From contig OZ024764.1 in NCBI GenBank assembly GCA_964016885.1, positions 13,826,001 to 13,890,000 of the forward strand: DNA of 64,000 nt. Reading direction: 5' to 3'. The DNA comes from Eledone cirrhosa. Its lineage: Eukaryota. The notes beneath the pieces are model-generated. The model searched no databases. It saw only the letters and a list, made by a program, of their open reading frames with translations, and had not been told where the DNA came from. This document shows, one piece after another, positions 13,642 to 56,005 of this stretch. A program made the translations under genes and the position numbers. The number at the start of each line of letters is the position of its first letter. The first letter of the stretch is position 1.

Positions 13642-14045
13642 TCTCCGCCTCCAATTTAGTTGCTTCGGCCACAGACCCCGGTATCGGGGCCCACCTCGCA
13701 GAAGAACGTAGAATAAACAAACACCGAGGTTTATCCGACCGATACCTCTTAGCACCGGTTGCCGTCGAGACCTCAGGCGTACTTGGACCCCTTACAGCCG
13801 AGCTCCTCTGCAAGATCGGAGCGTCGGCCGCCCGTCTGAGGAGGGAGCCCCGCGAGGTTGGGTGGCTGTTACAGCGGGTGTCACTGGCCATCGTCCAGGA
13901 GAATGCTTTTGCCGTCTTGTCAGCGGGGTGCAACACTTCTGCCCTCTTGCCCTAGACCCAAAGCCCAATCACCCTCCCATCTCTTCTGCAACACCAGAGC
14001 TCTTGCCACCCCCTCCCATTTCCGATCTTTTTCTTCTTTCCTTCT
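13642..14045 (+). mobile_element. CRE-clade-like (restriction-like endonuclease) non-LTR retrotransposon, 3' end
   Basis: AHLAEERRINKHRGLSDRYLLAPVAVETSGVLGP...EPREVGWLLQRVSLAIVQENA resembles the P-x-A-x-ET-x-G...QR-x-S-x-AI-x-x-x-N C-terminus of CRE-type elements, followed by a stop and a pyrimidine-rich 3' UTR. Confidence 0.7.
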
Positions 14046-17000
14046 CTCCTCTTTTTTTTCTATATATCCCTATTATTTCTTTCTCTCCTCTTTTTTTTTT
14101 CTATATATCCCTATTATTTCTTTCTCTCCTCTTTTTTTTCTATATATCCCTATTATTTCTTTCTCTCCTCTTTTTTTCTATATATCCCTATTATTTCTTT
14201 CTCTCCTCTTTTTTTTTCTATATATCCCTATTATTTCTTTCTCTCCTCTTTTTTTTCTATATATCCCTATTATTTCTTTCTCTCCTCTTTTTTTTCTATA
14301 TATCCCTATTATTTCTTTCTCTCCTCTTTTTTTTCTATATATCCCTATTATTTCTTTCTCTCCTCTTTTTTTTCTATATATCCCTATTATTTCTTTCTCT
14401 CCTCTTTTTTTTCTATATATCCCTATTATTTCTTTCTCTCCTCTTTTTTTTCTATATATCCCTATTATTTCTTTCTCTCCTCTTTTTTTTCTATATATCC
14501 CTATTATTTCTTTCTCTCCTCTTTTTTTTCTATATATCCCTATTATTTCTTTCTCTCCTCTTTTTTTTCTATATATCCCTATTATTTCTTTCTCTCCTCT
14601 TTTTTTTCTATATATCCCTATTATTTCTTTCTCTCCTCTTTTTTTTCTATATATCCCTATTATTTCTTTCTCTCCTCTTTTTTTTCTATATATCCCTATT
14701 ATTTCTTTCTCTCCTCTTTTTTTTCTATATATCCCTATTATTTCTTTCTCTCCTCTTTTTTTTTCTATATATCCCTATTATTTCTTTCTCTCCTCTTTTT
14801 TTTCTATATATCCCTATTATTTCTTTCTCTCCTCTTTTTTTTCTATATATCCCTATTATTTCTTTCTCTCCTCTTTTTTTTCTATATATCCCTTTTCTTT
14901 CTTTCTCTCCTCTTTTTTTCTATATATCCCTATTATTTCTTTCTCTCCTCTTTTTTTTCTATATATCCCTATTATTTCTTTCTCTCCTCTTTTTTTTCTA
15001 TATATCCCTATTATTTCTTTCTCTCCTCTTTTTTTTCTATATATCCCTATTATTTCTTTCTCTCCTCTTTTTTTTCTATATATCCCTATTATTTCTTTCT
15101 CTCCTCTTTTTTTTCTATATATCCCTATTATTTCTTTCTCTCCTCTTTTTTTTCTATATATCCCTATTATTTCTTTCTCTCCTCTTTTTTTTCTATATAT
15201 CCCTATTATTTCTTTCTCTCCTCTTTTTTTTCTATATATCCCTATTATTTCTTTCTCTCCTCTTTTTTTTCTATATATCCCTATTATTTCTTTCTCTCCT
15301 CTTTTTTTTCTATATATCCCTATTATTTCTTTCTCTCCTCTTTTTTTTCTATATATCCCTATTATTTCTTTCTCTCCTCTTTTTTTTCTATATATCCCTA
15401 TTATTTCTTTCTCTCCTCTTTTTTTTTCTATATATCCCTATTATTTCTTTCTCTCCTCTTTTTTTTCTATATATCCCTATTATTTCTTTCTCTCCTCTTT
15501 TTTTTCTATATATCCCTATTATTTCTTTCTCTCCTCTTTTTTTTCTATATATCCCTATTATTTCTTTCTCTCCTCTTTTTTTTCTATATATCCCTATTAT
15601 TTCTTTCTCTCCTCTTTTTTTTCTATATATCCCTATTATTTCTTTCTCTCCTCTTTTTTTTCTATATATCCCTATTATTTCTTTCTCTCCTCTTTTTTTT
15701 CTATATATCCCTATTATTTCTTTCTCTCCTCTTTTTTTTTCTATATATCCCTATTATTTCTTTCTCTCCTCTTTTTTTTCTATATATCCCTATTATTTCT
15801 TTCTCTCCTCTTTTTTTTCTATATATCCCTATTATTTCTTTCTCTCCTCTTTTTTTTCTATATATCCCTATTATTTCTTTCTCTCCTCTTTTTTTTCTAT
15901 ATATCCCTATTATTTCTTTCTCTCCTCTTTTTTTTTCTATATATCCCTATTATTTCTTTCTCTCCTCTTTTTTTTTCTATATATCCCTATTATTTCTTTC
16001 TCTCCTCTTTTTTTTCTATATATCCCTATTATTTCTTTCTCTCCTCTTTTTTTTCTATATATCCCTATTATTTCTTTCTCTCCTCTTTTTTTTCTATATA
16101 TCCCTATTATTTCTTTCTCTCCTCTTTTTTTTCTATATATCCCTATTATTTCTTTCTCTCCTCTTTTTTTTCTATATATCCCTATTATTTCTTTCTCTCC
16201 TCTTTTTTTTCTATATATCCCTATTATTTCTTTCTCTCCTCTTTTTTTTCTATATATCCCTTTTCTTTCTTTCTCTCCTCTTTTTTTCTATATATCCCTT
16301 TCTTTCTTTCTCTCCTCTTTTTTTTCTATATATCCCTATTATTTCTTTCTCTCCTCTTTTTTTTCTATATATCCCTATTATTTCTTTCTCTCCTCTTTTT
16401 TTTCTATATATCCCTATTATTTCTTTCTCTCCTCTTTTTTTTCTATATATCCCTTTTCTTTCTTTCTCTCCTCTTTTTTTTCTATATATCCCTATTATTT
16501 CTTTCTTTCTTCCTCTTTTTTTTCTATATATCCCTATTATTTCTTTCTCTCCTCTTTTTTTTCTATATATCCCTATTATTTCTTTCTCTCCTCTTTTTTT
16601 TCTATATATCCCTTTTCTTTCTTTCTCTCCTCTTTTTTTTTCTATATATCCCTATTATTTCTTTCTCTCCTCTTTTTTTTCTATATATCCCTATTATTTC
16701 TTTCTCTCCTCTTTTTTTTCTATATATCCCTATTATTTCTTTCTCTCCTCTTTTTTTTCTATATATCCCTTTTCTTTCTTTCTCTCCTCTTTTTTTTCTA
16801 TATATCCCTATTATTTCTTTCCTTTCTTTCCTCTTTTTTTTCTATATATCCCTATTATTTCTTTCTCTCCTCTTTTTTTTCTATATATCCCTATTATTTC
16901 TTTCTCTCCTCTTTTTTTTCTATATATCCCTATTATTTCTTTCTCTCCTCTTTTTTTTCTATATATCCCTATTATTTCTTTCTCTCCTCTTTTTTTTCTA

Positions 17001-20000
17001 TATATCCCTATTATTTCTTTCTCTCCTCTTTTTTTTCTATATATCCCTATTATTTCTTTCTCTCCTCTTTTTTTCTATATATCCCTTTTCTTTCTTTCTC
17101 TCCTCTTTTTTTTCTATATATCCCTATTATTTCTTTCCTTTTCTTCCTCTTTTTTTTCTATATATCCCTATTATTTCTTTCTCTCCTCTTTTTTTTCTAT
17201 ATATCCCTATTATTTCTTTCTCTCCTCTTTTTTTTCTATATATCCCTTTTCTTTCTTTCTCTCCTCTTTTTTTTCTATATATCCCTATTATTTCTTTCTC
17301 TCCTCTTTTTTTTCTATATATCCCTATTATTTCTTTCTCTCCTCTTTTTTTTCTATATATCCCTATTATTTCTTTCTCTCCTCTTTTTTTTCTATATATC
17401 CCTATTATTTCTTTCTCTCCTCTTTTTTTTCTATATATCCCTATTATTTCTTTCTCTCCTCTTTTTTTTCTATATATCCCTATTATTTCTTTCTCTCCTC
17501 TTTTTTTTCTATATATCCCTATTATTTCTTTCTCTCCTCTTTTTTTTCTATATATCCCTATTATTTCTTTCTCTCCTCTTTTTTTCTATATATCCCTATT
17601 ATTTCTTTCTCTCCTCTTTTTTTTCTATATATCCCTTTTCTTTCTTTCTCTCCTCTTTTTTTTCTATATATCCCTATTATTTCTTTCTCTCCTCTTTTTT
17701 TTCTATATATCCCTATTATTTCTTTCTCTCCTCTTTTTTTTCTATATATCCCTATTATTTCTTTCTCTCCTCTTTTTTTTCTATATATCCCTATTATTTC
17801 TTTCTCTCCTCTTTTTTTTCTATATATCCCTATTATTTCTTTCTCTCCTCTTTTTTTCTATATATCCCTTTTCTTTCTTTCTCTCCTCTTTTTTTTCTAT
17901 ATATCCCTATTATTTCTTTCTCTCCTCTTTTTTTTCTATATATCCCTATTATTTCTTTCTCTCCTCTTTTTTTTCTATATATCCCTATTATTTCTTTCTC
18001 TCCTCTTTTTTTTCTATATATCCCTATTATTTCTTTCTCTCCTCTTTTTTTTCTATATATCCCTATTATTTCTTTCTCTCCTCTTTTTTTCTATATATCC
18101 CTATTATTTCTTTCTCTCCTCTTTTTTTCTATATATCCCTATTATTTCTTTCTCTCCTCTTTTTTTTCTATATATCCCTATTATTTCTTTCTCTCCTCTT
18201 TTTTTTCTATATATCCCTATTATTTCTTTCTCTCCTCTTTTTTTTCTATATATCCCTATTATTTCTTTCTCTCCTCTTTTTTTTCTATATATCCATATTA
18301 TTTCTTTCTCTCCTCTTTTTTTCTATATATCCCTATTATTTCTTTCTCTCCTCTTTTTTTTCTATATATCCCTATTATTTCTTTCTCTCCTCTTTTTTTT
18401 CTATATATCCCTATTATTTCTTTCTCTCCTCTTTTTTTTCTATATATCCCTTTTCTTTCTTTCTCTCCTCTTTTTTTCTATATATCCCTATTATTTCTTT
18501 CTCTCCTCTTTTTTTTCTATATATCCCTATTATTTCTTTCTCTCCTCTTTTTTTTCTATATATCCCTATTATTTCTTTCTCTCCTCTTTTTTTTCTATAT
18601 ATCCCTATTATTCTTTCTCTCCTCTTTTTTTTCTATATATCCCTATTATTTCTTTCTCTCCTCTTTTTTTTCTATATATCCCTATTATTTCTTTCTCTCC
18701 TCTTTTTTTCTATATATCCCTTTTCTTTCTTTCTCTCCTCTTTTTTTTCTATATATCCCTATTATTTCTTTCTCTCCTCTTTTTTTTCTATATATCCCTA
18801 TTATTTCTTTCTCTCCTCTTTTTTTTCTATATATCCCTATTATTTCTTTCTCTCCTCTTTTTTTTCTATATATCCCTATTATTTCTTTCTCTCCTCTTTT
18901 TTTTCTATATATCCCTATTATTTCTTTCTCTCCTCTTTTTTTTCTATATATCCCTATTATTTCTTTCTCTCCTCTTTTTTTTCTATATATCCCTATTATT
19001 TCTTTCTCTCCTCTTTTTTTTCTATATATCCCTATTATTTCTTTCTCTCCTCTTTTTTTTCTATATATCCCTTTCTTTCTTTCTCTCCTCTTTTTTTTCT
19101 ATATATCCCTATTATTTCTTTCTCTCCTCTTTTTTTTCTATATATCCCTATTATTTCTTTCTCTCCTCTTTTTTTTCTATATATCCCTATTATTTCTTTC
19201 TCTCCTCTTTTTTTTCTATATATCCCTATTATTTCTTTCTCTCCTCTTTTTTTTCTATATATCCCTATTATTTCTTTCTCTCCTCTTTTTTTTCTATATA
19301 TCCCTATTATTTCTTTCTCTCCTCTTTTTTTTCTATATATCCCTTTTCTTTCTTTCTCTCCTCTTTTTTTTCTATATATCCCTATTATTTCTTTCTCTCC
19401 TCTTTTTTTCTATATATCCCTTTTCTTTCTTTCTCTCCTCTTTTTTTTCTATATATCCCTATTATTTCTTTCTCTCCTCTTTTTTTTCTATATATCCCTA
19501 TTATTTCTTTCTCTCCTCTTTTTTTTCTATATATCCCTTTTCTTTCTTTCTCTCCTCTTTTTTTTCTATATATCCCTATTATTTCTTTCTCTCCTCTTTT
19601 TTTTCTATATATCCCTTTTCTTTCTTTCTCTCCTCTTTTTTTTCTTATATCCCTATTATTTCTTTCTCTCCTCTTTTTTTTCTATATATCCCTATTATTT
19701 CTTTCTCTCCTCTTTTTTTTCTATATATCCCTTTTCTTTCTTTCTCTCCTCTTTTTTTTCTATATATCCCTATTATTTCTTTCTCTCCTCTTTTTTTTCT
19801 ATATATCCCTATTATTTCTTTCTCTCCTCTTTTTTTTCTATATATCCCTTTTATTTCTTTCTCTCCTCTTTTTTTTCTATATATCCCTATTATTTCTTTC
19901 TCTCCTCTTTTTTTTCTATATATCCCTTTTCTTTCTTTCTCTCCTCTTTTTTTTCTATATATCCCTATTATTTCTTTCTCTCCTCTTTTTTTTCTATATA

Positions 20001-23000
20001 TCCCTATTATTTCTTTCTCTCCTCTTTTTTTTCTATATATCCCTTTTCTTTCTTTCTCTCCTCTTTTTTTTCTATATATCCCTATTATTTCTTTCTCTCC
20101 TCTTTTTTTTCTATATATCCCTTTTCTTTCTTTCTCTCCTCTTTTTTTTCTATATATCCCTATTATTTCTTTCTCTCCTCTTTTTTTTCTATATATCCCT
20201 ATTATTTCTTTCTCTCCTCTTTTTTTTCTATATATCCCTTTTCTTTCTTTCTCTCCTCTTTTTTTTCTATATATCCCTATTATTTCTTTCTCTCCTCTTT
20301 TTTTTCTATATATCCCTATTATTTCTTTCTCTCCTCTTTTTTTTCTATATATCCCTTTTCTTTCTTTCTCTCCTCTTTTTTTTCTATATATCCCTATTAT
20401 TTCTTTCTCTCCTCTTTTTTTTCTATATATCCCTTTTCTTTCTTTCTCTCCTCTTTTTTTTCTATATATCCCTATTATTTCTTTCTCTCCTCTTTTTTTT
20501 CTATATATCCCTATTATTTCTTTCTCTCCTCTTTTTTTTCTATATATCCCTATTATTTCTTTCTCTCCTCTTTTTTTTCTATATATCCCTATTATTTCTT
20601 TCTCTCCTCTTTTTTTTCTATATATCCCTATTATTTCTTTCTCTCCTCTTTTTTTTCTATATATCCCTTTTCTTTCTTTCTCTCCTCTTTTTTTTCTATA
20701 TATCCCTATTATTTCTTTCTCTCCTCTTTTTTTTCTATATATCCCTATTATTTCTTTCTCTCCTCTTTTTTTTCTATATATCCCTTTTCTTTCTTTCTCT
20801 CCTCTTTTTTTTCTATATATCCCTATTATTTCTTTCTCTCCTCTTTTTTTTCTATATATCCCTATTATTTCTTTCTCTCCTCTTTTTTTTCTATATATCC
20901 CTTTTCTTTCTTTCTCTCCTCTTTTTTTTCTATATATCCCTATTATTTCTTTCTCTCCTCTTTTTTTTCTATATATCCCTTTTCTTTCTTTCTCTCCTCT
21001 TTTTTTTCTATATATCCCTATTATTTCTTTCTCTCCTCTTTTTTTCTATATATCCCTATTATTTCTTTCTCTCCTCTTTTTTTTCTATATATCCCTTTTC
21101 TTTCTTTCTCTCCTCTTTTTTTTCTATATATCCCTATTATTTCTTTCTCTCCTCTTTTTTTTCTATATATCCCTATTATTTCTTTCTCTCCTCTTTTTTT
21201 TCTATATATCCCTATTATTTCTTTCTCTCCTCTTTTTTTTCTATATATCCCTTTTCTTTCTTTCTCTCCTCTTTTTTTTCTATATATCCCTATTATTTCT
21301 TTCTCTCCTCTTTTTTTTCTATATATCCCTATTATTTCTTTCTCTCCTCTTTTTTTTCTATATATCCCTATTATTTCTTTCTCTCCTCTTTTTTTTCTAT
21401 ATATCCCTTTTCTTTCTTTCTCTCCTCTTTTTTTTCTATATTTCCCTATTATTTCTTTCTCTCCTCTTTTTTTTCTATATATCCCTTTTCTTTCTTTCTC
21501 TCCTCTTTTTTTTCTATATATCCCTATTATTTCTTTCTCTCCTCTTTTTTTTTCTATATATCCCTTTTCTTTCTTTCTCTCCTCTTTTTTTTCTATATAT
21601 CCCTATTATTTCTTTCTCTCCTCTTTTTTTTCTATATATCCCTTTTCTTTCTTTCTCTCCTCTTTTTTTTCTATATATCCCTATTATTTCTTTCTCTCCT
21701 CTTTTTTTTCTATATATCCCTATTATTTCTTTCTCTCCTCTTTTTTTTCTATATATCCCTTTTCTTTCTTTCTCTCCTCTTTTTTTTCTATATATCCCTA
21801 TTATTTCTTTCTCTCCTCTTTTTTTTCTATATATCCCTATTATTTCTTTCTCTCCTCTTTTTTTTCTATATATCCCTATTATTTCTTTCTCTCCTCTTTT
21901 TTTTCTATATATCCCTATTATTTCTTTCTCTCCTCTTTTTTTTCTATATATCCCTTTTCTTTCTTTCTCTCCTCTTTTTTTTCTATATATCCCTATTATT
22001 TCTTTCTCTCCTCTTTTTTTTCTATATATCCCTATTATTTCTTTCTCTCCTCTTTTTTTTCTATATATCCCTATTATTTCTTTCTCTCCTCTTTTTTTTC
22101 TATATATCCCTATTATTTCTTTCTCTCCTCTTTTTTTTCTATATATCCCTTTTCTTTCTTTCTCTCCTCTTTTTTTTCTATATATCCCTATTATTTCTTT
22201 CTCTCCTCTTTTTTTTCTATATATCCCTATTATTTCTTTCTCTCCTCTTTTTTTTCTATATATCCCTATTATTTCTTTCTCTCCTCTTTTTTTTCTATAT
22301 ATCCCTATTATTTCTTTCTCTCCTCTTTTTTTCTATATATCCCTATTATTTCTTTCTCTCCTCTTTTTTTCTATATATCCCTATTATTTCTTTCTCTCCT
22401 CTTTTTTTCTATATATCCCTATTATTTCTTTCTCTCCTCTTTTTTTTCTATATATCCCTATTATTTCCTTCTCTCCTCTTTTTTTTTCTATATATCCCTA
22501 TTATTTCTTTCTCTCCTCTTTTTTTTTCTATATATCCCTATTATTTCTTTCTCTCCTCTTTTTTTTCTATATATCCCTATTATTTCTTTCTCTCCTCTTT
22601 TTTTTCTATATATCCCTATTATTTCTTTCTCTCCTCTTTTTTTTCTATATATCCCTATTATTTCTTTCTCTCCTCTTTTTTTTCTATATATCCCTATTAT
22701 TTCTTTCTCTCCTCTTTTTTTTCTATATATCCCTATTATTTCTTTCTCTCCTCTTTTTTTTCTATATATCCCTATTATTTCTTTCTCTCCTCTTTTTTTT
22801 CTATATATCCCTATTATTTCTTTCTCTCCTCTTTTTTTTCTATATATCCCTATTATTTCTTTCTCTCCTCTTTTTTTTCTATATATCCCTATTATTTCTT
22901 TCTCTCCTCTTTTTTTTCTATATATCCCTATTATTTCTTTCTCTCCTCTTTTTTTTCTATATATCCCTATTATTTCTTTCTCTCCTCTTTTTTTTCTATA

Positions 23001-23575
23001 TATCCCTATTATTTCCTTCTCTCCTCTTTTTTTTCTATATATCCCTATTATTTCTTTCTCTCCTCTTTTTTTTCTATATATCCCTATTATTTCTTTCTCT
23101 CCTCTTTTTTTTCTATATATCCCTATTATTTCTTTCTCTCCTCTTTTTTTTTCTATATATCCCTATTATTTCTTTCTCTCCTCTTTTTTTTTTCTATATA
23201 TCCCTATTATTTCTTTCTCTCCTCTTTTTTTTTCTATATATCCCTATTATTTCTTTCTCTCCTCTTTTTTTCTATATATCCCTTTTCTTTCTTTCTCTCC
23301 TCTTTTTTTTCTATATATCCCTATTATTTCTTTCTCTCCTCTTTTTTTTCTATATATCCCTATTATTTCTTTCTCTCCTCTTTTTTTCTATATATCCCTT
23401 TTCTTTCTTTCTCTCCTCTTTTTTTTCTATATATCCCTATTATTTCTTTCTCTCCTTTTTTTTTTCTATATATCCCTATTATTTCTTTCTCTCCTCTTTT
23501 TTTTCTATATATCCCTATTATTTCTTTCTCTCCTCTTTTTTTCTATATATCCCTTTTCTTTCTTTCCTTTTGTTT
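14045..23575. repeat. 39-bp satellite, about 9.5 kb and about 245 copies, in TMX1 intron 1
   Basis: Unit CTCTCCTC-T8-CTATATATCCC-TATTATTTCTTT, with variant ...CCCTTTTCTTTCTTT. The + strand has no G. Confidence 0.98.
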
Positions 23576-23616
23576 CCTCTCCTTTTTTATTATTTCTATA
23601 TTGAAAATAAACATGT

Positions 23617-25388: not shown

Positions 25389-25839
25389 AATTTTTCATAA
25401 ATATATATATAGAATAAGAAAATGCTAAGTAGTTGCAGATGTTCAAGTCCTTTATTGGTAAGGCTTTGATACATATTTCAATGACAGTGGCCACACGATT
25501 CCACTTAACCAGTGTCATGATCTCATCAGACAGCTTCATTACATAATAAAGTTACGTTCTCGAGACAATCCAAACTAAAACAATAAGGGTACAGATAAAG
25601 ATGATGCTTTTGAAGCCTTCGCCCATTCCCCTACATATATATAGAGAGAGAGAGGAAAAAGTAAGACCCCGGCGGCAGAGCTCAAGCCGTTTCGACGTCC
25701 AGAAATAGCCGTCGAAACGGCTTAAACTCTGCCGTCGGGGTCTTACTTTTTCCTATTTCTAACTCTACTACCCTAAGTATTGAGTACTCTGGTGCGTTAT
25801 GGTCCACCTGGTTCCTTTGTTATATATATATATATATAT

Positions 25840-26023
25840 ATAGAAGAGCTTCTACAGGACTAGAACTGTTTCATTCGTGAGAAATCATCAGTGCTTCCTG
25901 ATGATTTCTCACGAATGAAACAGTTCTAGTCCTGTAGAAGCTCTTCTATATTAAAACATTTATACTCTGCTATGTATTGAGTACCTTACTTACTGTGGTT
26001 ACCCCCAATTCAAGCCGGAATAA
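25840..26023 (+). mobile_element. Fold-back element with a hammerhead-like core
   Basis: Arms 25840-25891 and 25898-25950 are perfect inverted copies containing CTGATGA-T-TTC tcac GAA-T-GAAAC. Related copies at 49760-49817, 58017-58139 and 61707-61771 (-). Confidence 0.7.
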
Positions 26024-26454: not shown

Positions 26455-27721
26455 TACACATCTTTCCAGGATAGACCCATGGTCAAACACTTTAGTGTGG
26501 AAAAAAGGGGGGTATATTTCATATCAACACTAGTATATGACTGGTACTATATTTGATCAAATACCACCAACCCATCTCCGTCACCACCACCACCACCACA
26601 CACCACCCTTGATTAATGGAAAGGTTAATTTAAATTAATTCCATCAAAATATATAGATACCCGGTAATGATACATACTCAGACACCTTAGGGTGGGGGAA
26701 GGAGGTACATTTTATACTATCTACACCAATTCACGAATGGTATTGTTTTACCGACCCTGGATGAAAAAAAAAGAAGAAATAAAGTCCACGTGAACGAGAT
26801 TTGAACTCACAACACTCCCCCAAAAGCTTAACTAAACATCACGTTCTACGCTCTAATAAATATTGTTGTTGCTGTTATTGTTAATAACAAATTTATGTCA
26901 GGGTAAGTTGAGTGTATATAACTAGGTTGGTCTTTATAGAAAGCAACAAAAGTGTAAAATAAACGATATATATATATATAAAATATGGGGAGAAGAATAC
27001 TGCATGGTTGCACATGGATTACATATTATAAAATTAGTCCCTCATCAGTGATTTGCCAACGATCATTGGTATTTCATCGCATTATATATATATACACACC
27101 CCCACTCTCAAAAGCGTGAACCTAATAAACCTTTATTTGTCTGCCTCTCTGTTTTGTTCCGTATAAATTTGCACTATATATATATACACACACATATATA
27201 TGTGTATTTCGTTTTTGTATTAATTGTCAGCATGTATTAAATATATATATATATATTATATATATATATATATTTAATACATTAACAGAGAAAGCTTTAA
27301 GCAATACTCTGACCAACTCCATCTCACTCAACAAATATTAGGATATACCTAATATATATATATAAAGACTAATAAACACCAAAGAGTTGATATCACGTCT
27401 TTGGTGTTGTGATGTTCCAGATTACGGTTTGCTCTCTTCCGGGCCTCTTTGCGGTCTCGGAATACGCAACCTCTGTGCGTCCGTCCCACACCTCCCAGGA
27501 CAGATTGCAAGCCCATCGCCAGTTTTTGCGGCATGAAATGGAGACTGCAATATATATTTCGAACAGGCCTCTATACCTAAGACCTGGATGCGTTCCTTAA
27601 GAATAAGATATATATATGTAATCGATAAAGTAAATACATATTCTTAAAAAGGCTCCAGTTGCATTTTCAATTTCTTTTCCTCATATTGTTTCTAACATTA
27701 AACAAAAAAAATCACTTTCTT

Positions 27722-34495: not shown

Positions 34496-35423
34496 ATATC
34501 TCTATCTATCTATCTCTCTCATCGTAAATCTTGCAATAGTTTTTGTTTATTGTTGTTTCTCAAAGCCATGAATGAATCAGAGAAGTTTAACTGCAGACAA
34601 TGTGATTAACTATCGATTCATTTGTGATGTCATCATAAATATTACGATCTGATTGGTTGATTAATGTACCTCCCTCCACCACCATGAATCATCGCCCAAG
34701 CTTTGATCTGATTGGCTGTCGGTAAATTTTTAGTCACTCATAAGTCAAAACAAACTTATTGTTTCAAAACACTGGATTAAGTTAAAAGCCTGCTTGAGTA
34801 TTAATTAACAACCCACTGGAGGTGTGTGACCTAGTGGTAAGGGTGTTGGGATTACAGTTACAATGTCATAGGTTCAATTCCTAGGCTAGGAATGGTCATC
34901 ATACATACATACTTATATATATACGATTCTGTTTTTTTCTCTCTGTCTCTCTCTTACTGCTCCCTCGTTCTCTCTGTTTCTCCTACTTTCTTTCGCCCCC
35001 TCTGTCATGTCAGTTAACTCTTCCTCACACTTCCACTCACTCACTCACTATTTCTCCTCTTATCACTTCACCCCGTTCGCGACGAAAACATTTTCTCTCT
35101 TTCTCACATTTGAATTCGTTCCCGAAAGGTCTTTTTCTAAGCGCTCATATATTCACCTAGCTTATGCTAACAGAATAACTATGTAGCTTGTTCCCTTCCT
35201 TCTACGGTTAGCTCTCCTCTTTGTTGTTATCTTGTCTCACTCGCTTTACGCGTTTTAATTGTCCTAATAACTTAATTTAGTTATTATTGCACCGACGTGA
35301 GGTATATGATTTTTAATGCAATGAAATATCTATGATCGTCGGCAAATCACTGATGAGGGACTTATTTTATTACATGTTATCCATATGCAACCTGCAGTAT
35401 TCTTCTCCCCATTTTTTCACATA

Positions 35424-35479
<56 letters not shown>

Positions 35480-35566
35480 TGTGTATGTAAGTATGTATGT
35501 ATGTATGTACACTCATACACACAGTAGGCTGATGATGACCATTCCTAGCCTATGTATATATATATG

Positions 35567-35599
<33 letters not shown>

Positions 35600-35622
35600 G
35601 TATAAATATATATGTATATATT

Positions 35623-35681
<59 letters not shown>

Positions 35682-35951
35682 ATATATATATATATATATG
35701 AGAGTATTGAAGTTTGCTTGAAGCATTGTGGAATAATAAGTAAATATCTTTAAGTCGTTTGGAAGCCTCGACAATGCAAATGGGTAAATCTCCGGGTAAC
35801 AAGGTCCGGTGGTGGAGAGAGAGATGTAAGTGGGTGTATGTTGAGATGCGTGGTGTGTATAAGACGTGTAGAGGAATGAAGGAAAGAGTATAAAGGATAA
35901 AATAAAAATAACAACACAAGAGAGAGTTACCTTGGGAGAGATTTAATTGTC

Positions 35952-36055
35952 CCTATATATTTCGGATTCACATCCATCAACTGGGGTTTTTTCCGGGGTG
36001 GGGGAAAGGTTGTCTGTCGGAAAGGTGCAAAACGCGTCCTCCGCTGTTTGTTGTT

Positions 36056-36097
<42 letters not shown>

Positions 36098-36198
36098 AAC
36101 AACAAACAGCGGAGGACGCGTTTCGTACCTTTCCGACAGACAACCTTTCCCCCACCCCGGAAAAAACCCCAGTTGATGGATGTGAATCCGAAATATAT
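35952..36198. repeat. Inverted repeat with ~105-bp arms centred on (TA)n
   Basis: 35956-36060 is the reverse complement of 36093-36197. Contains GAAACGCGTC and a degenerate core ccc-CAGTTGA-T-GGAT gtga ATCC-GAA-ATATAT-A-ggg. Confidence 0.85.
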
Positions 36199-36338
36199 AT
36201 ATATATACATATATATACATATATATACATATATATACATATATACATATATACATATATATATATATACATATATATATATACATATATATATATACAT
36301 ATATATACATATATATACATACATATATATACATATAT

Positions 36339-36389
<51 letters not shown>

Positions 36390-36828
36390 CATATATATAT
36401 ACATACATATACATATACATATATATATATATATACATATATATACATATATATATACATACATATACATATACATATATATATATATACATATATATAT
36501 ATATCTACATATATATATATCTACATATATATATATCTACATATATATATACACACCACATACATATACATATGCTGATGTATTACATACAATCTATATA
36601 TAGCTTGCCTGAATTTATTGATCTAGAAACTGTTGGCCACTTAGGATGCTGAAAAAAAAAAGTAAAAATGAAGGCACAGGAATAAATGAATATGTATGTG
36701 TGTATATATATGTGGATATACATATATACATGTATATATGTATGTATTTATATATATACATATATACATGTATATATGTATATATATATATATATGTATA
36801 TGTATATATATGTATACATGTATATATG

Positions 36829-36867
<39 letters not shown>

Positions 36868-36912
36868 ACATGTATATATGTATGTATGTATATATATATA
36901 TATATGTATATG

Positions 36913-36984
<72 letters not shown>

Positions 36985-37078
36985 TATATGTATATATATA
37001 TGTATATATATATATATACATATACACATATATATATATTATATATATATATATGTGTATATGTATATATATGTATAT

Positions 37079-37109
<31 letters not shown>

Positions 37110-37561
37110 TTGTGTGCATATATATGTATATGTGTATATATATATATATCATCATCATTTTACGTCCACCTTTCCCTGCTTGCAAGGGTGGGACGGGAAC
37201 TGATCCTGGCGTGATTTCTACAGCTGGATGCCCTTCCTAACACCAACCTCATTTACAGTGGGTGGTGGGTGCTTTTTTGCCGTGGCACCTCCACGACCAC
37301 TTTGCAGTGGAATGATAGGGACCCCAGTCCCTCTCATCTCATTTCTACAGCTGAGTAAACTGGAGCAATGTGAAATAAAGTGTCTTGCTCAAGGAAACAA
37401 CACATCACCCGGTCTGAGAATTGAATTCACAACCTTTCGATTGCAAGCCCAATGCTCTAACCACTAAGTCATGTGCCTCCATGTATATATATGGTGATAG
37501 TAGTAGTGAGTCAATTGATTGTGCATGTGTATGTGTAAGTATATATATATATACATATATA

Positions 37562-37610
<49 letters not shown>

Positions 37611-37882
37611 AATTCCATTTGTGATAACATTTTACACGTTTTTATTGTATGTAAACTTCCCCCTTTGTATCTGTCCCCTTCTTTTGTGCCCCTGTGGCTA
37701 ATAAAGAAATATATCTATCTATATATATATATATACCATTTTGTTTGTTACCCTAACGTCCCCTTTATTTACGTGTCCCAACGATTTTTTTTAGCCGTTG
37801 TTCGCACCAACCTGAGGCATATGGCCCTTAAAGCGATGAAATGCCTGGGACGGTTGGAGGGTCACTGATGAAGGACTCACTT

Positions 37883-37967
<85 letters not shown>

Positions 37968-43210: not shown

Positions 43211-43745
43211 AAATGAATTGTCTTCAAATTCTTGACATGAGGGAGAAAAATAACGATGTTCTCTCACAGAATTAATTCCCTCATATGATGAGATCAGTGA
43301 TAATCAATCATGGCTTCACAATTGATCTATCTCTTACTGAAACATGTGTCGTGATTAAATGATTGGAATTTTACCTTGCCTTCGGATTTTCATTTTGATA
43401 CTTATACCCCGTTTTACATCATCTAGCTGTTCCCTTGAATGGAATTGGAGATATACAAAAGCGTGGAGGACTTAATATTGCTAACATAAAGTTATTGGAC
43501 CATTTTACACAACCAATATTGCACCTTACTATATAACTATATATATATATATATGGCAGCACATGGCTTAGTGGTTAGAGCATTGGCATTGCAATCGAAA
43601 GGTTGTGAGTTCAATTCTCAGACCGGGTGATATGTTGTTTCCTTGAGCAAGACACTTTATTTCACATTGCTCCAGTTTACTCAGCTGTAGAAATGAGATG
43701 ATAGGAGTGGGGTCCCTATCATTCCACTGCAAAATGGTCGTGGAG

Positions 43746-45610
43746 GCTGGATCCTGTGAAGAATCATCCTGTTGAGGGTCTTTGCCACAAGTGACACCAG
43801 TGAGATCCCCCTGTAGTTGTTGGTGTTAGAGAGATCTCCCTTCTTTGGCACTGGGACGATGTTACTGATCCTCCACTGATTCGGGGCAACTCCTTTCTCC
43901 AGTGCCCCGTTACAGAACCCCAGGATGATATCATCAAAATCACACCTCTTCATCACCTCTGATGCCACTCCATCTTCTCCATGAGCCTTGCCCTCCTTGA
44001 TCCTCTTCTTGGCTCTCTGAAGCTCCTCTCTGGTGAAGGGTCCTGTCTCAATATCCAGTTCCTCAAACAGCCGCCTGATCTCCCCAGTATTCTGGGCTGT
44101 GGAGGGTGGCTCTCCTAGTAGGGTCCTAAAGTGGTCTAGCCATTTCCTCTTCCTATCCTCGGACCCCGTTCCCTGGATCTGACTCGAACACCTTCTCTTC
44201 CTCCCTGTGATCTCGTTGATGATCATCCAGCTCTCCTTCCACCCAGACCTGTCAACTGCTCTCTCCACACTTCTGATCTTCTCTATCAGTGTCTCCTCTC
44301 TGACCTCAGTGTAAGCAGTACAGAGTTCTTCCCTCATCACCTCCACAGTCTCCATCCTCTCCTCCGTAGGATCAGCATGGAGTTAGTCCTTGGCAGCTTT
44401 CAGGTGTTCTCTGGCTGCACACACTTTTGGGTTTGCAGAGCTGACGTGCTTGCTTTTGTTCTTTCTCCTCGGCACCAGGTTCTCACTTGCTTCCGCCACT
44501 GCATTGGTGAAGTGCCCGTACCTCCTCGTCACACTCTCCTCAGTCCATCCAATCTCTCTCTCCTCTGTCTCTCCACACAGAGCACTGAACCTCTTCCTCA
44601 CTTCCACTGTGAACCTCTCCTGTAGCTTATCATCTTCCTTGAAAGCTCCCCAGTCATAGATTGCTCTCTGGGGCTGAGCCTTGCTCTTTCTTAAGTTCAC
44701 CTGGACCTCACTCATAACAAGCCGGTGGTCACTACCCAGTTTACTGAAATAGTTGTATGGTTCTGTGTTCAGAACACTATTCCGCCACTTTTTCCTCACC
44801 AGAATGAAATCAATCTGGGACTTGGACAGGTGCATATCTGAGATGTAGGTCCACATCTTCCCTGGATTCTTCCTAAACCTTAGGTTGGTTGCTATCAAGT
44901 TCGCCTCCAGCAGGGTGTCTCTCAGTAGTCTTCCATTTCAGTTGGTGTTGTTATGGAAGTACCAGCGAGGATCTTCACTGCTCTCCTTACTCAGATGTGC
45001 ATTGAAGTCCCCCAAAACAAGCAGGATGTTGTGCGCTTGAGTGGTGTTGACAGCTCTACACACCACCTCATGGAACTCTTCTGCACTCACATCACTGTCT
45101 CCCTCGGTTGGACTATAGGCTGAGATGACTGTCAGTCTTGGGTTTCCATTGAAGGTCACCCTCAACACTCGCGGGGAGACAGGCATTATTTCCCTCACCA
45201 ATAGACTGGTTTTTGTGCTGAAAACAAAACCCCCTCCTCCCACTGCAGCATTGGTCATGTTCCTCACTGCCGATGTGGTGATGAGCTGGCTCCTCTTCCC
45301 AATCATCACACTCCTCATGGGCTCATCGTGTAGGATCCTGTGTTCCTGGATCGCAAGTATCTGTATACCACTTTCCTCGAACAGATGTCCCAACTCCTCT
45401 CTCTTCTCCAGCGTCCGAATAGTCCTCATATTCAAAGTGCCCATTTTGATGGCTCTTCTGCAGGACAAAACTGCATTCTTTATATTTGTCTCAGAGACAG
45501 TTGATCCATCATCCACTGGCCCTCAGCCAGCAGAGTCATAACGACCAGACTGCTCCTTGACAGTGTAATTAGGGGCTCTAACCCTAATGCTGTTAGATCG
45601 ACTCTCCATA
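43746..45610 (-). mobile_element. RTE-clade LINE 5' part (APE endonuclease and N-terminal RT), inverted
   Basis: GTLNMRT...LAIQEHR...ISAYSPT...LGDFNAH...SQIDFIL...SDH (APE motifs), then IVPVPKKGDLSNTNNYRGISL (start of RT). Frameshifts present. Confidence 0.92.
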
Positions 45611-45712
45611 TTTCTTTTCAATGGCTGACAATACCTTACCGGCGCCACTCGAATAAGGTAGTTTTTTAACCCATAAATGGGGCCCTAACAGGTACTACTA
45701 CTTCGGCTCAGA

Positions 45713-46510
45713 GCAGGAGAGTTAAGACGAAAAAGGTATCAGATGCTGAATTTGCCGACGACATAGTTTTGGTGACAAATACAGTGAAGGAGGCAGAGGA
45801 TTTGATGCAGGAGGTTGAGACTGTGCCGATGAATGTGGGGCTGAGAATGAATGAGACTAAAACAAAATATCTGGTAGAGAATGTTGAGAAGCCAGAGGGG
45901 ATCACTAATGTAGGCGGGAAGCCGCTAGAATTGGTTGAAGACTTCCTGTATTTGGGAGTAAAGATTGGGAATATGGAAGATGATGTGGTTGAGAGGAAGA
46001 GCAAAGCCTGGGCGGCGTGCCACAGCTTGAGATCAGTGTGGAAGTGGGACCTTCATGAAGACCAGCAGATCCGCCTCTTCATTGCTGTAGTGGAGTCTGT
46101 GCTGCTGTACGGGTCTGAGACTTGGACACTGACCAAGAAACTCACTCAGATGGTGGATGGGTGCTACACGAGAATGCTGAGGATGGCTCTGAACATTAAT
46201 CAGTATACACTAAGGATGAAAAACTCAGAGCTGTATGGGAGAATCCCAAAAGTCAGCTCAAAAGTGACACAGAGGAGACTGAGGTTAGCTAGACATGCTC
46301 ACCGACATCCAGAGTTGACATTGCACTCAGTGCTCCTGTGGGAGCCCCTATATGGACACACGGGAAGAGGAAGACCAAGGTTAACGTATGTTGATGCCCT
46401 AAGGACAGACACTGGTCTGTTGGAGACGCAGGATATGGCAGCGATAATGAGGGACAGAGACCACTGGAGAGAACTTTTCCATGGATCTCGGGAATTTTAC
46501 CCACCCTAGA
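45713..46510 (+). mobile_element. RTE-clade LINE 3' part (RT FADD motif to stop)
   Basis: EFADDIVL...GLRMNETKTK...FLYLG...ESVLLYGSETW...RRLRLARH...GRGRPRLTY...DRDHWR. Confidence 0.92.
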
Positions 46511-55466: not shown

Positions 55467-56005
55467 TATATATCTACATGCATACATATATACACACATG
55501 AATAGACTTCATTTAAAAAAGCCGCACGTCCATATAATCACAGACAAAGGAAGAAACCTGTCTATATTGCCTACAAACTATAGCTATACGAATACGAGTA
55601 ATTAATTGGGGCACAAAATATATAGCTAAGTGCCCCAGCAGCATTCCTCAGCAATCAACCATGGGTTTGTTGATATGTAAAGATGTGTGATATATTTAAG
55701 TAATTTAGCTTGTGGTATGCATGAGTGAATGTCTGTCTATCTATATGTCTCTCTCTCTCTATATATATATATATAGGAACGAGTAGGACCCCGACGGCCG
55801 AGCTCAAGCCGTTTCGACGGCTAATTCTGGACTAAAAAAAAAAAATAAAAATTTTTTTTTTTTTTTTTAGTCCAGAATTAGCCGTCGAAACGGCTTGAGC
55901 TCGGCCGTCGGGGTCCTACTCGTTCCTATTACCCACTCTACTACCCTAAGTATTGTGTACTTTGGTGCGTTATGGTCCACCTGGTTCCTTACCACATTTC
56001 TTCCG

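Follow-up and report, generated by a model that had tools for sequence, protein, structure and literature searches.

The motif found twice in full in the 64-kb window (the whole stretch of DNA that was analyzed) is very likely a hammerhead of the SGC type, carried by a noncoding repeat of about 15,000 copies that a Naiad-type Penelope-like retrotransposon likely copies. We are highly confident, from the sequence, that it is a hammerhead whose blocks follow a noncircular order, namely, the cut site (block S), GAAA (block G), and CUGAUGA (block C). The motif also likely self-cleaves, and the cleavage is predicted to occur after A35306 in copy A and after A37821 in copy B. The carrier ribozyme is a new variant within the hammerhead class.

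Copies of the motif in the window

A search with the family alignment using nhmmer detected copies A, B, and C (Table 1) as the sole family matches in the window. Copy A was 94% identical over 509 nt to a tandem unit (L003) of subfamily A, whose units are ~516 to 530 bp, and it terminates at the long "tail" end, in (TA)n. Copy B was 98.7% identical to a unit of subfamily B (L032; units of 675 to 724 bp), and 39 other scored copies of this subfamily (40 scored out of 1487 first-look candidates) were 99% identical to it. As originally predicted, GAAA lies ahead of CTGATGA in both copies (35323/35350 and 37838/37865), GTCC (35261 and 37775) pairs with GGAC (35358 and 37873), and a partial copy is present on the minus strand at ~26970 to 27090. 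The same prediction had taken the copies at 37.8 kb and 27 kb to be dead because of substitutions at the cleavage site. The bases concerned in copy B are in fact normal across the young subfamily B, and since they are its fixed state, copy B is intact and not dead. Copy C is indeed dead, but the cause is truncation: it lacks block S and therefore cannot self-cut.

Table 1. Positions of the repeat copies, the ribozyme motifs, and the predicted structural elements of copy A
Feature	Positions	Strand	Description
Copy A	34924..35426	+	5'-truncated single unit of noncoding tandem repeat, subfamily A
Copy A ribozyme motif	35261..35361	+	Order S-G-C
P0 5' strand	35261..35264	+	Pairs with 35358-35361 directly behind the core
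Hairpin PA	35265..35286	+	8 bp; one arm of four-way junction; two-sided changes in 4 of 8 pairs
Upstream stem II strand	35287..35290	+	Pairs with 35318-35321; 97.0% paired
Interaction helix 5' strand	35292..35297	+	Pairs with 35337-35342; connects far ends of stems I and II
Predicted kink-turn	35298..35300, partner 35331-35336	+	Nonbulged strand N-G-A; partner has 3-nt bulge and G-A-N
Block S	35301..35312	+	Stem III 3' strand 35301-35305; N17 = A35306; predicted cut 35306/35307; stem I 5' strand 35307-35312
Block G	35318..35330	+	Stem II 3' strand; U35322; GAAA 35323-35326; stem III 5' strand 35326-35330
Block C	35344..35361	+	Stem I 3' strand 35344-35349; CUGAUGA 35350-35356; purine 35357; P0 3' strand
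Copy B	37732..37890	+	5'-truncated member of young subfamily B; terminates at short 3' end, in (TA)n
Copy B ribozyme motif	37775..37876	+	Intact; predicted cut 37821/37822; stem I of at most 8 bp, stem III of 5 bp
Copy C	26970..27090	-	Partial; 5' truncation reaches just past the cut site, so that block S is missing

Conservation and covariation of the core

For the alignment, 175 copies were taken from loci L001 to L136, 96 of them from the first 100 pattern matches on contig C1 and the others by likeness to the window copies. The full-length filter was passed by 137 of the 175, the 38 truncated or rearranged ones being left out, and the resulting alignment (A1) holds 92 distinct cores. The invariance of CUGAUGA, GGAC, and the last three bases of stem I is partly built into the search, and block C and P0 were used for row selection; the U16.1, N1.1, and N17 columns played no part in it.

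Several features of these cores point to a hammerhead of the SGC type. First, the nucleotides that define the class are present: CUGANGA (invariant as CUGAUGA, partly by selection), GAAA, the A15.1-U16.1 pair, and H17. U16.1 and N1.1 were invariant in all 92 rows, and N17 was A in 85 and C in 7 but never G, giving the cut triplet U-A-U or U-C-U, respectively. Second, stems I and III covary around this core. Stem III was 97.6% paired, with A15.1-U16.1 kept in 89 cores and replaced by U-G in one more; one of its pairs occurs as U-A, U-G, or C-G and another as G-C, G-U, or A-U. Stem I was 93.5% paired with two-sided changes at three pairs, making five such pairs in the two stems together. Third, among variants shared by at least three rows, all 5 in stem I and 4 of the 5 in stem III preserved the pairing. 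Finally, the blocks follow one another in S-G-C order with a short linker between stems I and II (5 nt in copy A, 3 nt in copy B), and the purine at 35357 is able to pair with U35322. An independent permuted-hammerhead descriptor found both full copies in the window, placed their cuts likewise before 35307 and 37822, and gave no matches in 20 of 20 shuffles.

Over the entire SGC model, 95.3% of the positions in A1 were paired compared to 28.6 to 47.1% in slid controls. The 13 pairs with two-sided changes were reached by 21 of 500 shuffles and the number of further pair types by 488 of 500, and these counts come from related subfamilies of one genome, with few events counted many times. Minimum-energy folding, a method that cannot model pseudoknots, was not significant (z of -1.62, 0.05, and 0.71); the folds do recover P0, PA, and the arm made of the interaction helix and stem III. 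No hammerhead appeared among the 150 of 260 Rfam matches listed, which were mostly microRNA models on TA palindromes, and a metagenome scan with a 30-nt pattern returned 0 matches.

An opened stem II and a predicted kink-turn

A permuted hammerhead with a multiway junction at stem II had been proposed from the outset, and this part of the proposal is supported; both upstream helices are present and covary. The bases behind CUGAUGA form at most one stem II pair (U-A in 50 and U-G in 39 of the 92 cores) beyond which their partner is P0, the strand at the far 5' end. Stem II is completed instead by the upstream strand, which P0 and PA hold in a four-way junction. One pair of this strand, 36-68, is C-G in 70 rows and U-A in 22. 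P0 was 99.2% paired without covariation in A1, where both of its strands served to select rows; in family D (see below) and in the Naiad records, its role is filled by other sequences. The second of the two upstream hairpins of the original prediction is a real helix but not a simple hairpin, for its loop contains the cut site together with strands that belong to three long-range helices.

As in type SGC, an interaction helix connects stems I and II at their far ends. This helix was 95.1% paired and shows A-U/G-C and C-G/G-C swaps; 3 of its 5 shared variants were unpaired. Stem III joins it through a kink-turn consensus on both strands. Kink-turns are defined, in the available text of PMC5435971, by a 3-nt bulge, tandem G-A and A-G pairs, and a flanking canonical helix, and all of these elements are found here: both GA steps are intact in 85 of 92 cores and the closing C-G pair in 91.

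The carrier repeat

A 17-nt core pattern matched the 3.0-Gb host genome, which is rich in (TA)n, 7448 + 7739 times (15,187) compared to once for the reversed control, so the motif is not due to chance. The carrier units are 0.5 to 0.7 kb long, pyrimidine rich, and noncoding; they stand singly or in tandem, are 5' truncated, lie between TA runs, and contain one ribozyme each. Two classes of 3' ends were apparent among 96 unselected copies, 23 ending 18 to 23 nt and 45 ending 51 to 77 nt past the core C; 24 of the remaining copies continue into the next unit and 4 do otherwise. Such a pair of ends, separated by ~45 nt, fits the Penelope "tail"; in an anole Penelope-like element, this tail corresponds to two internal positions at which reverse transcription starts (PMC11167929). 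The carrier has the traits of a nonautonomous Penelope-like element or retrozyme, namely, tandem units, two 3' ends, inverted 5' arms, a microsatellite target, and the lack of an open reading frame (ORF).

Traces of cleavage in the genome were sparse. The arm ended within 3 nt of the predicted cut in 3 of 12 head-to-head inversions and near the originally predicted site in 1, and exact fold-backs genome-wide gave 2 events at the cut compared to 0 and 0 at two control sites; these observations amount to no more than a hint. In L094 and L110, the two ends that seemed to fall at the cut were discarded as alignment artifacts.

By analogy, the carrier is probably mobilized by a Naiad, as suggested by the common ribozyme and the common target. 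In the available text on Naiads (PMC8557442), the likeness extends to (TA)n targets, tails, and tandem and inverted copies; unlike Naiads, the carrier encodes no protein, and no linked ORF was found. The genome searches here found no Naiad ORF attached to the motif, and no reverse transcriptase in sense lay directly upstream at the 175 copies. Of 10,596 GIY-YIG candidates in the genome, 150 were scored and 20 long loci were inspected; the 11 with a motif call were of the C-terminal type, and the 2 family copies found in 180 kb near these loci correspond to chance density. Loci L171 to L190 contain canonical C-terminal GIY-YIG Penelope-like ORFs of up to 1096 codons. Two short motifs of the Naiad_Obim type gave 4 matches in other noncoding families and 5 chance matches compared to 2 in the control. 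The octopus Naiad ribozyme sequence, which differs from that of the carrier, had no close match in this genome.

Alternative readings of the fold

Read-through of the predicted cut site is seen in most copies and in every tandem array, as might be expected if the fold were a binding or docking structure for a borrowed retrotransposon protein, derived from a hammerhead and cutting little or not at all. Consistent with this, the ribozyme of the anole Penelope-like element required protein for cutting, and insertion in vitro did not depend on it (PMC11167929). We nevertheless consider a docking structure unlikely, since GAAA, U16.1, and a non-G N17 (with its A/C switch) are kept across the subfamilies, family D, and the Naiad records, and a scaffold would not need them. 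Read-through copies would also be accounted for by an RNA that alternates between the active SGC fold and an inactive one, in which a local hairpin at 35333 to 35349 sequesters the stem I strand. Subfamily A allows this hairpin to form and subfamily B shows partial covariation in it, but it is broken in many subfamilies, is 3 to 4 bp long compared to 6 to 8 bp for the true stem I, and is absent from the minimum-energy folds, which makes switching very improbable.

The type II (GSC) topology of the original prediction, in which stem III is 1 bp, stem I is a local helix of 4 bp (TGAT/ATCA), and cleavage follows 35332, is scarcely credible, because the A15.1-U16.1 pair of that register is kept in only 41 of 92 cores, and the supposed U16.1 takes all four bases (T in 41, A in 39, C in 8, and G in 4). 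Its local helix is 88.6% paired, and in 14 rows a U-A pair has become C-G, a single two-sided change, but shared variants stay paired in 1 of 6 cases in this stem I (5 of 6 unpaired) and 0 of 3 in this stem III; in sum, 1 of 9 variants remains paired in the stems of that register compared to 9 of 10 in stems I and III of the SGC fold. Likewise, the core is complete in 22 of 92 in the former and in 76 of 92 in the latter. The conserved GA is accounted for by the kink-turn, and no cut site with a conserved U16.1 and a non-G N17 was found between GAAA and CUGANGA. Nor do stems I and III have local hairpin loops, as covariation puts both long-range. Among the genomic copies, the upstream helices and the long-range stems I and III show compensatory changes, and the predicted cut follows A35306 rather than ~35332. 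The interaction helix, the kink-turn, and the repeat family were absent from the original prediction.

Comparison with other hammerheads

The SGC fold preferred here can be set beside the type SGC ribozymes (HRIMA-1 and variants) of Eckert et al. 2023, which, in the available text (PMC10085705), cleave at 0.007 to 0.19 per minute at the predicted site and come from metatranscriptomes, none being from genomes of known organisms. The two are alike in the S-G-C order, the short stem I-stem II linker, the far-end helix, and all core nucleotides. They differ in two respects in the same available text. First, the published block C is contiguous with stem II, without a multistem junction, and was assumed to be uninterruptible, whereas here it is interrupted, stem II being opened and rebuilt via P0 and PA. 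Second, unlike in the published SGC ribozymes, stem III here meets the interaction helix via a kink-turn consensus on both strands.

Activity with a stem II of 1 bp and a pseudoknot is known from a type II hammerhead (Perreault et al. 2011, available text of PMC3088659), which resembles the present motif in having GAAA before CUGANGA, a helix between the ends of stems I and II, and a stem II reduced to as little as 1 bp. In that type, GAAA and CUGANGA flank the cut site, and hairpins form stems I and III; here, the site is upstream of GAAA. The animal non-LTR retrozymes, as far as the available portions of PMC7229834 and bioRxiv 10.64898/2026.07.22.740005 describe them, are also noncoding tandem units with one hammerhead each, present in thousands of copies and tied to Penelope-like elements. 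Those hammerheads are of type I in units of ~150 to 450 bp, whereas the units here are 500 to 800 bp and have, in place of a type I hammerhead, a noncircularly permuted one in SGC order. Because of this permutation, type I descriptors would miss the carrier ribozyme, and the available text of the 2026 preprint describes type I models only (bioRxiv 10.64898/2026.07.22.740005). The literature covered, outside which most subscription papers fall, yielded no account of permuted hammerheads from animal genomes or Naiads, nor of this fold from Naiads or cephalopods.

The layout in Naiad elements

Naiads target (TA)n and are described in the available text of Craig et al. 2021 (PMC8557442) as lacking canonical hammerheads and having 8 "half cores." In the part of the Naiad consensus records covered, read by eye and not aligned, the opened SGC layout closes 8 records. 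In Naiad_Obim and Naiad_Ovul, the likeness extends to the kink-turn and to a mismatch in PA. It was also seen in three Acropora Naiads and in two records that, by file order, are those of a box jellyfish and an arthropod, and the Beroe Naiad has it in part, with a stem I of only 2 bp. Eight nematode records (three named by file order only) are instead of type CSG with a contiguous stem II, again by eye. The tally is at least 16 of 54 records, drawn from 59 of 62 CTGATGA and 29 of 81 CGAAAC matches in the same part; two 3' ends with CTGATGA could not be parsed into the layout.

We lean toward the view that Naiads and their noncoding parasites use noncircular hammerheads throughout: plain CSG in nematodes and an SGC form whose core is opened by a fourth strand in cnidarians, arthropods, and cephalopods, with a kink-turn in cephalopods that closes the cage and could let a host protein of the L7Ae family tune cleavage. 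If this is true, noncircular hammerheads would be among the commonest ribozymes of invertebrate genomes, overlooked by standard descriptors. The SGC reading also gives a testable reason for the apparent lack of hammerheads in Naiads.

Possible mechanism and significance

In the proposed mechanism, the kink would bend the stem III arm back toward the far ends of stems I and II. The molecule may thereby form a closed cage whose two ends are three-way junctions, and this would align stems I and II as the loop-loop contacts do in ordinary hammerheads. The geometry by which the stem III arm reaches these far ends was called "not obvious" in the available text of Eckert et al. (PMC10085705), and the kink-turn suggests a route for stem III to the helix between stems I and II. 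Cleavage would trim tandem transcripts to unit length, possibly yielding circles. It may be slow or occur only with the help of a protein, because most genomic copies read through the cut site; for the same reason, uncut or circular templates would be needed. A borrowed reverse transcriptase would start either 20 or 65 nt behind the core and insert the copy into (TA)n.

With these results, noncircularly permuted hammerheads would no longer be confined to rare environmental RNAs but would occur in 15,000 copies in an animal genome, and the wiring, in which stem II is split from CUGANGA, would be one that the published scheme of six permutations excludes. The RNA, of 100 nt, is directly assayable, as its cut site is predicted and compensatory variants of it exist in nature.

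Family D and other motifs

A second tandem repeat, family D (L128, 1960 to 2160; L194 to L223), with units of 774 to 804 bp and 1024 candidates in the genome, has no sequence likeness to the first family by blastn. Its layout is the same, with P0, PA, an upstream stem II strand, an interaction helix, and the S-G-C order. Family D has a GUC triplet and no kink-turn, P0 begins directly behind CUGACGA, and stem II is G-C and supplied wholly by the upstream strand. More S-G-C motifs with a kink-turn consensus were seen by eye in L137 to L140 at ~1400 to 1560; in L138 and L140, stem II seems contiguous with CUGANGA, possibly a plain SGC form. L054 contains a further subfamily outside A1 (+655 and -471), in which a stem I pair is G-C where others have A-U or G-U.

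By a loose descriptor, the window also contains 13 candidate type I-like cores (8076+, 33475-, 47290+, 56583+, 47907+, 52085+, 55279-, 57835+, 57676-, and 4 more), which lie in several Penelope-like repeat families. Near-perfect long palindromes at ~25800 to 25960, 35950 to 36190, and 55780 to 55920 are likely fold-back insertions of Penelope-like ends, and they are the source of many of the Rfam microRNA matches. A satellite of ~10 kb at ~13900 to 23600 has almost no G on the plus strand (GC skew of about -1.0). The stretch at 43681 to 46509, with endonuclease- and reverse transcriptase-like frames, is presumably a broken LINE-like remnant.
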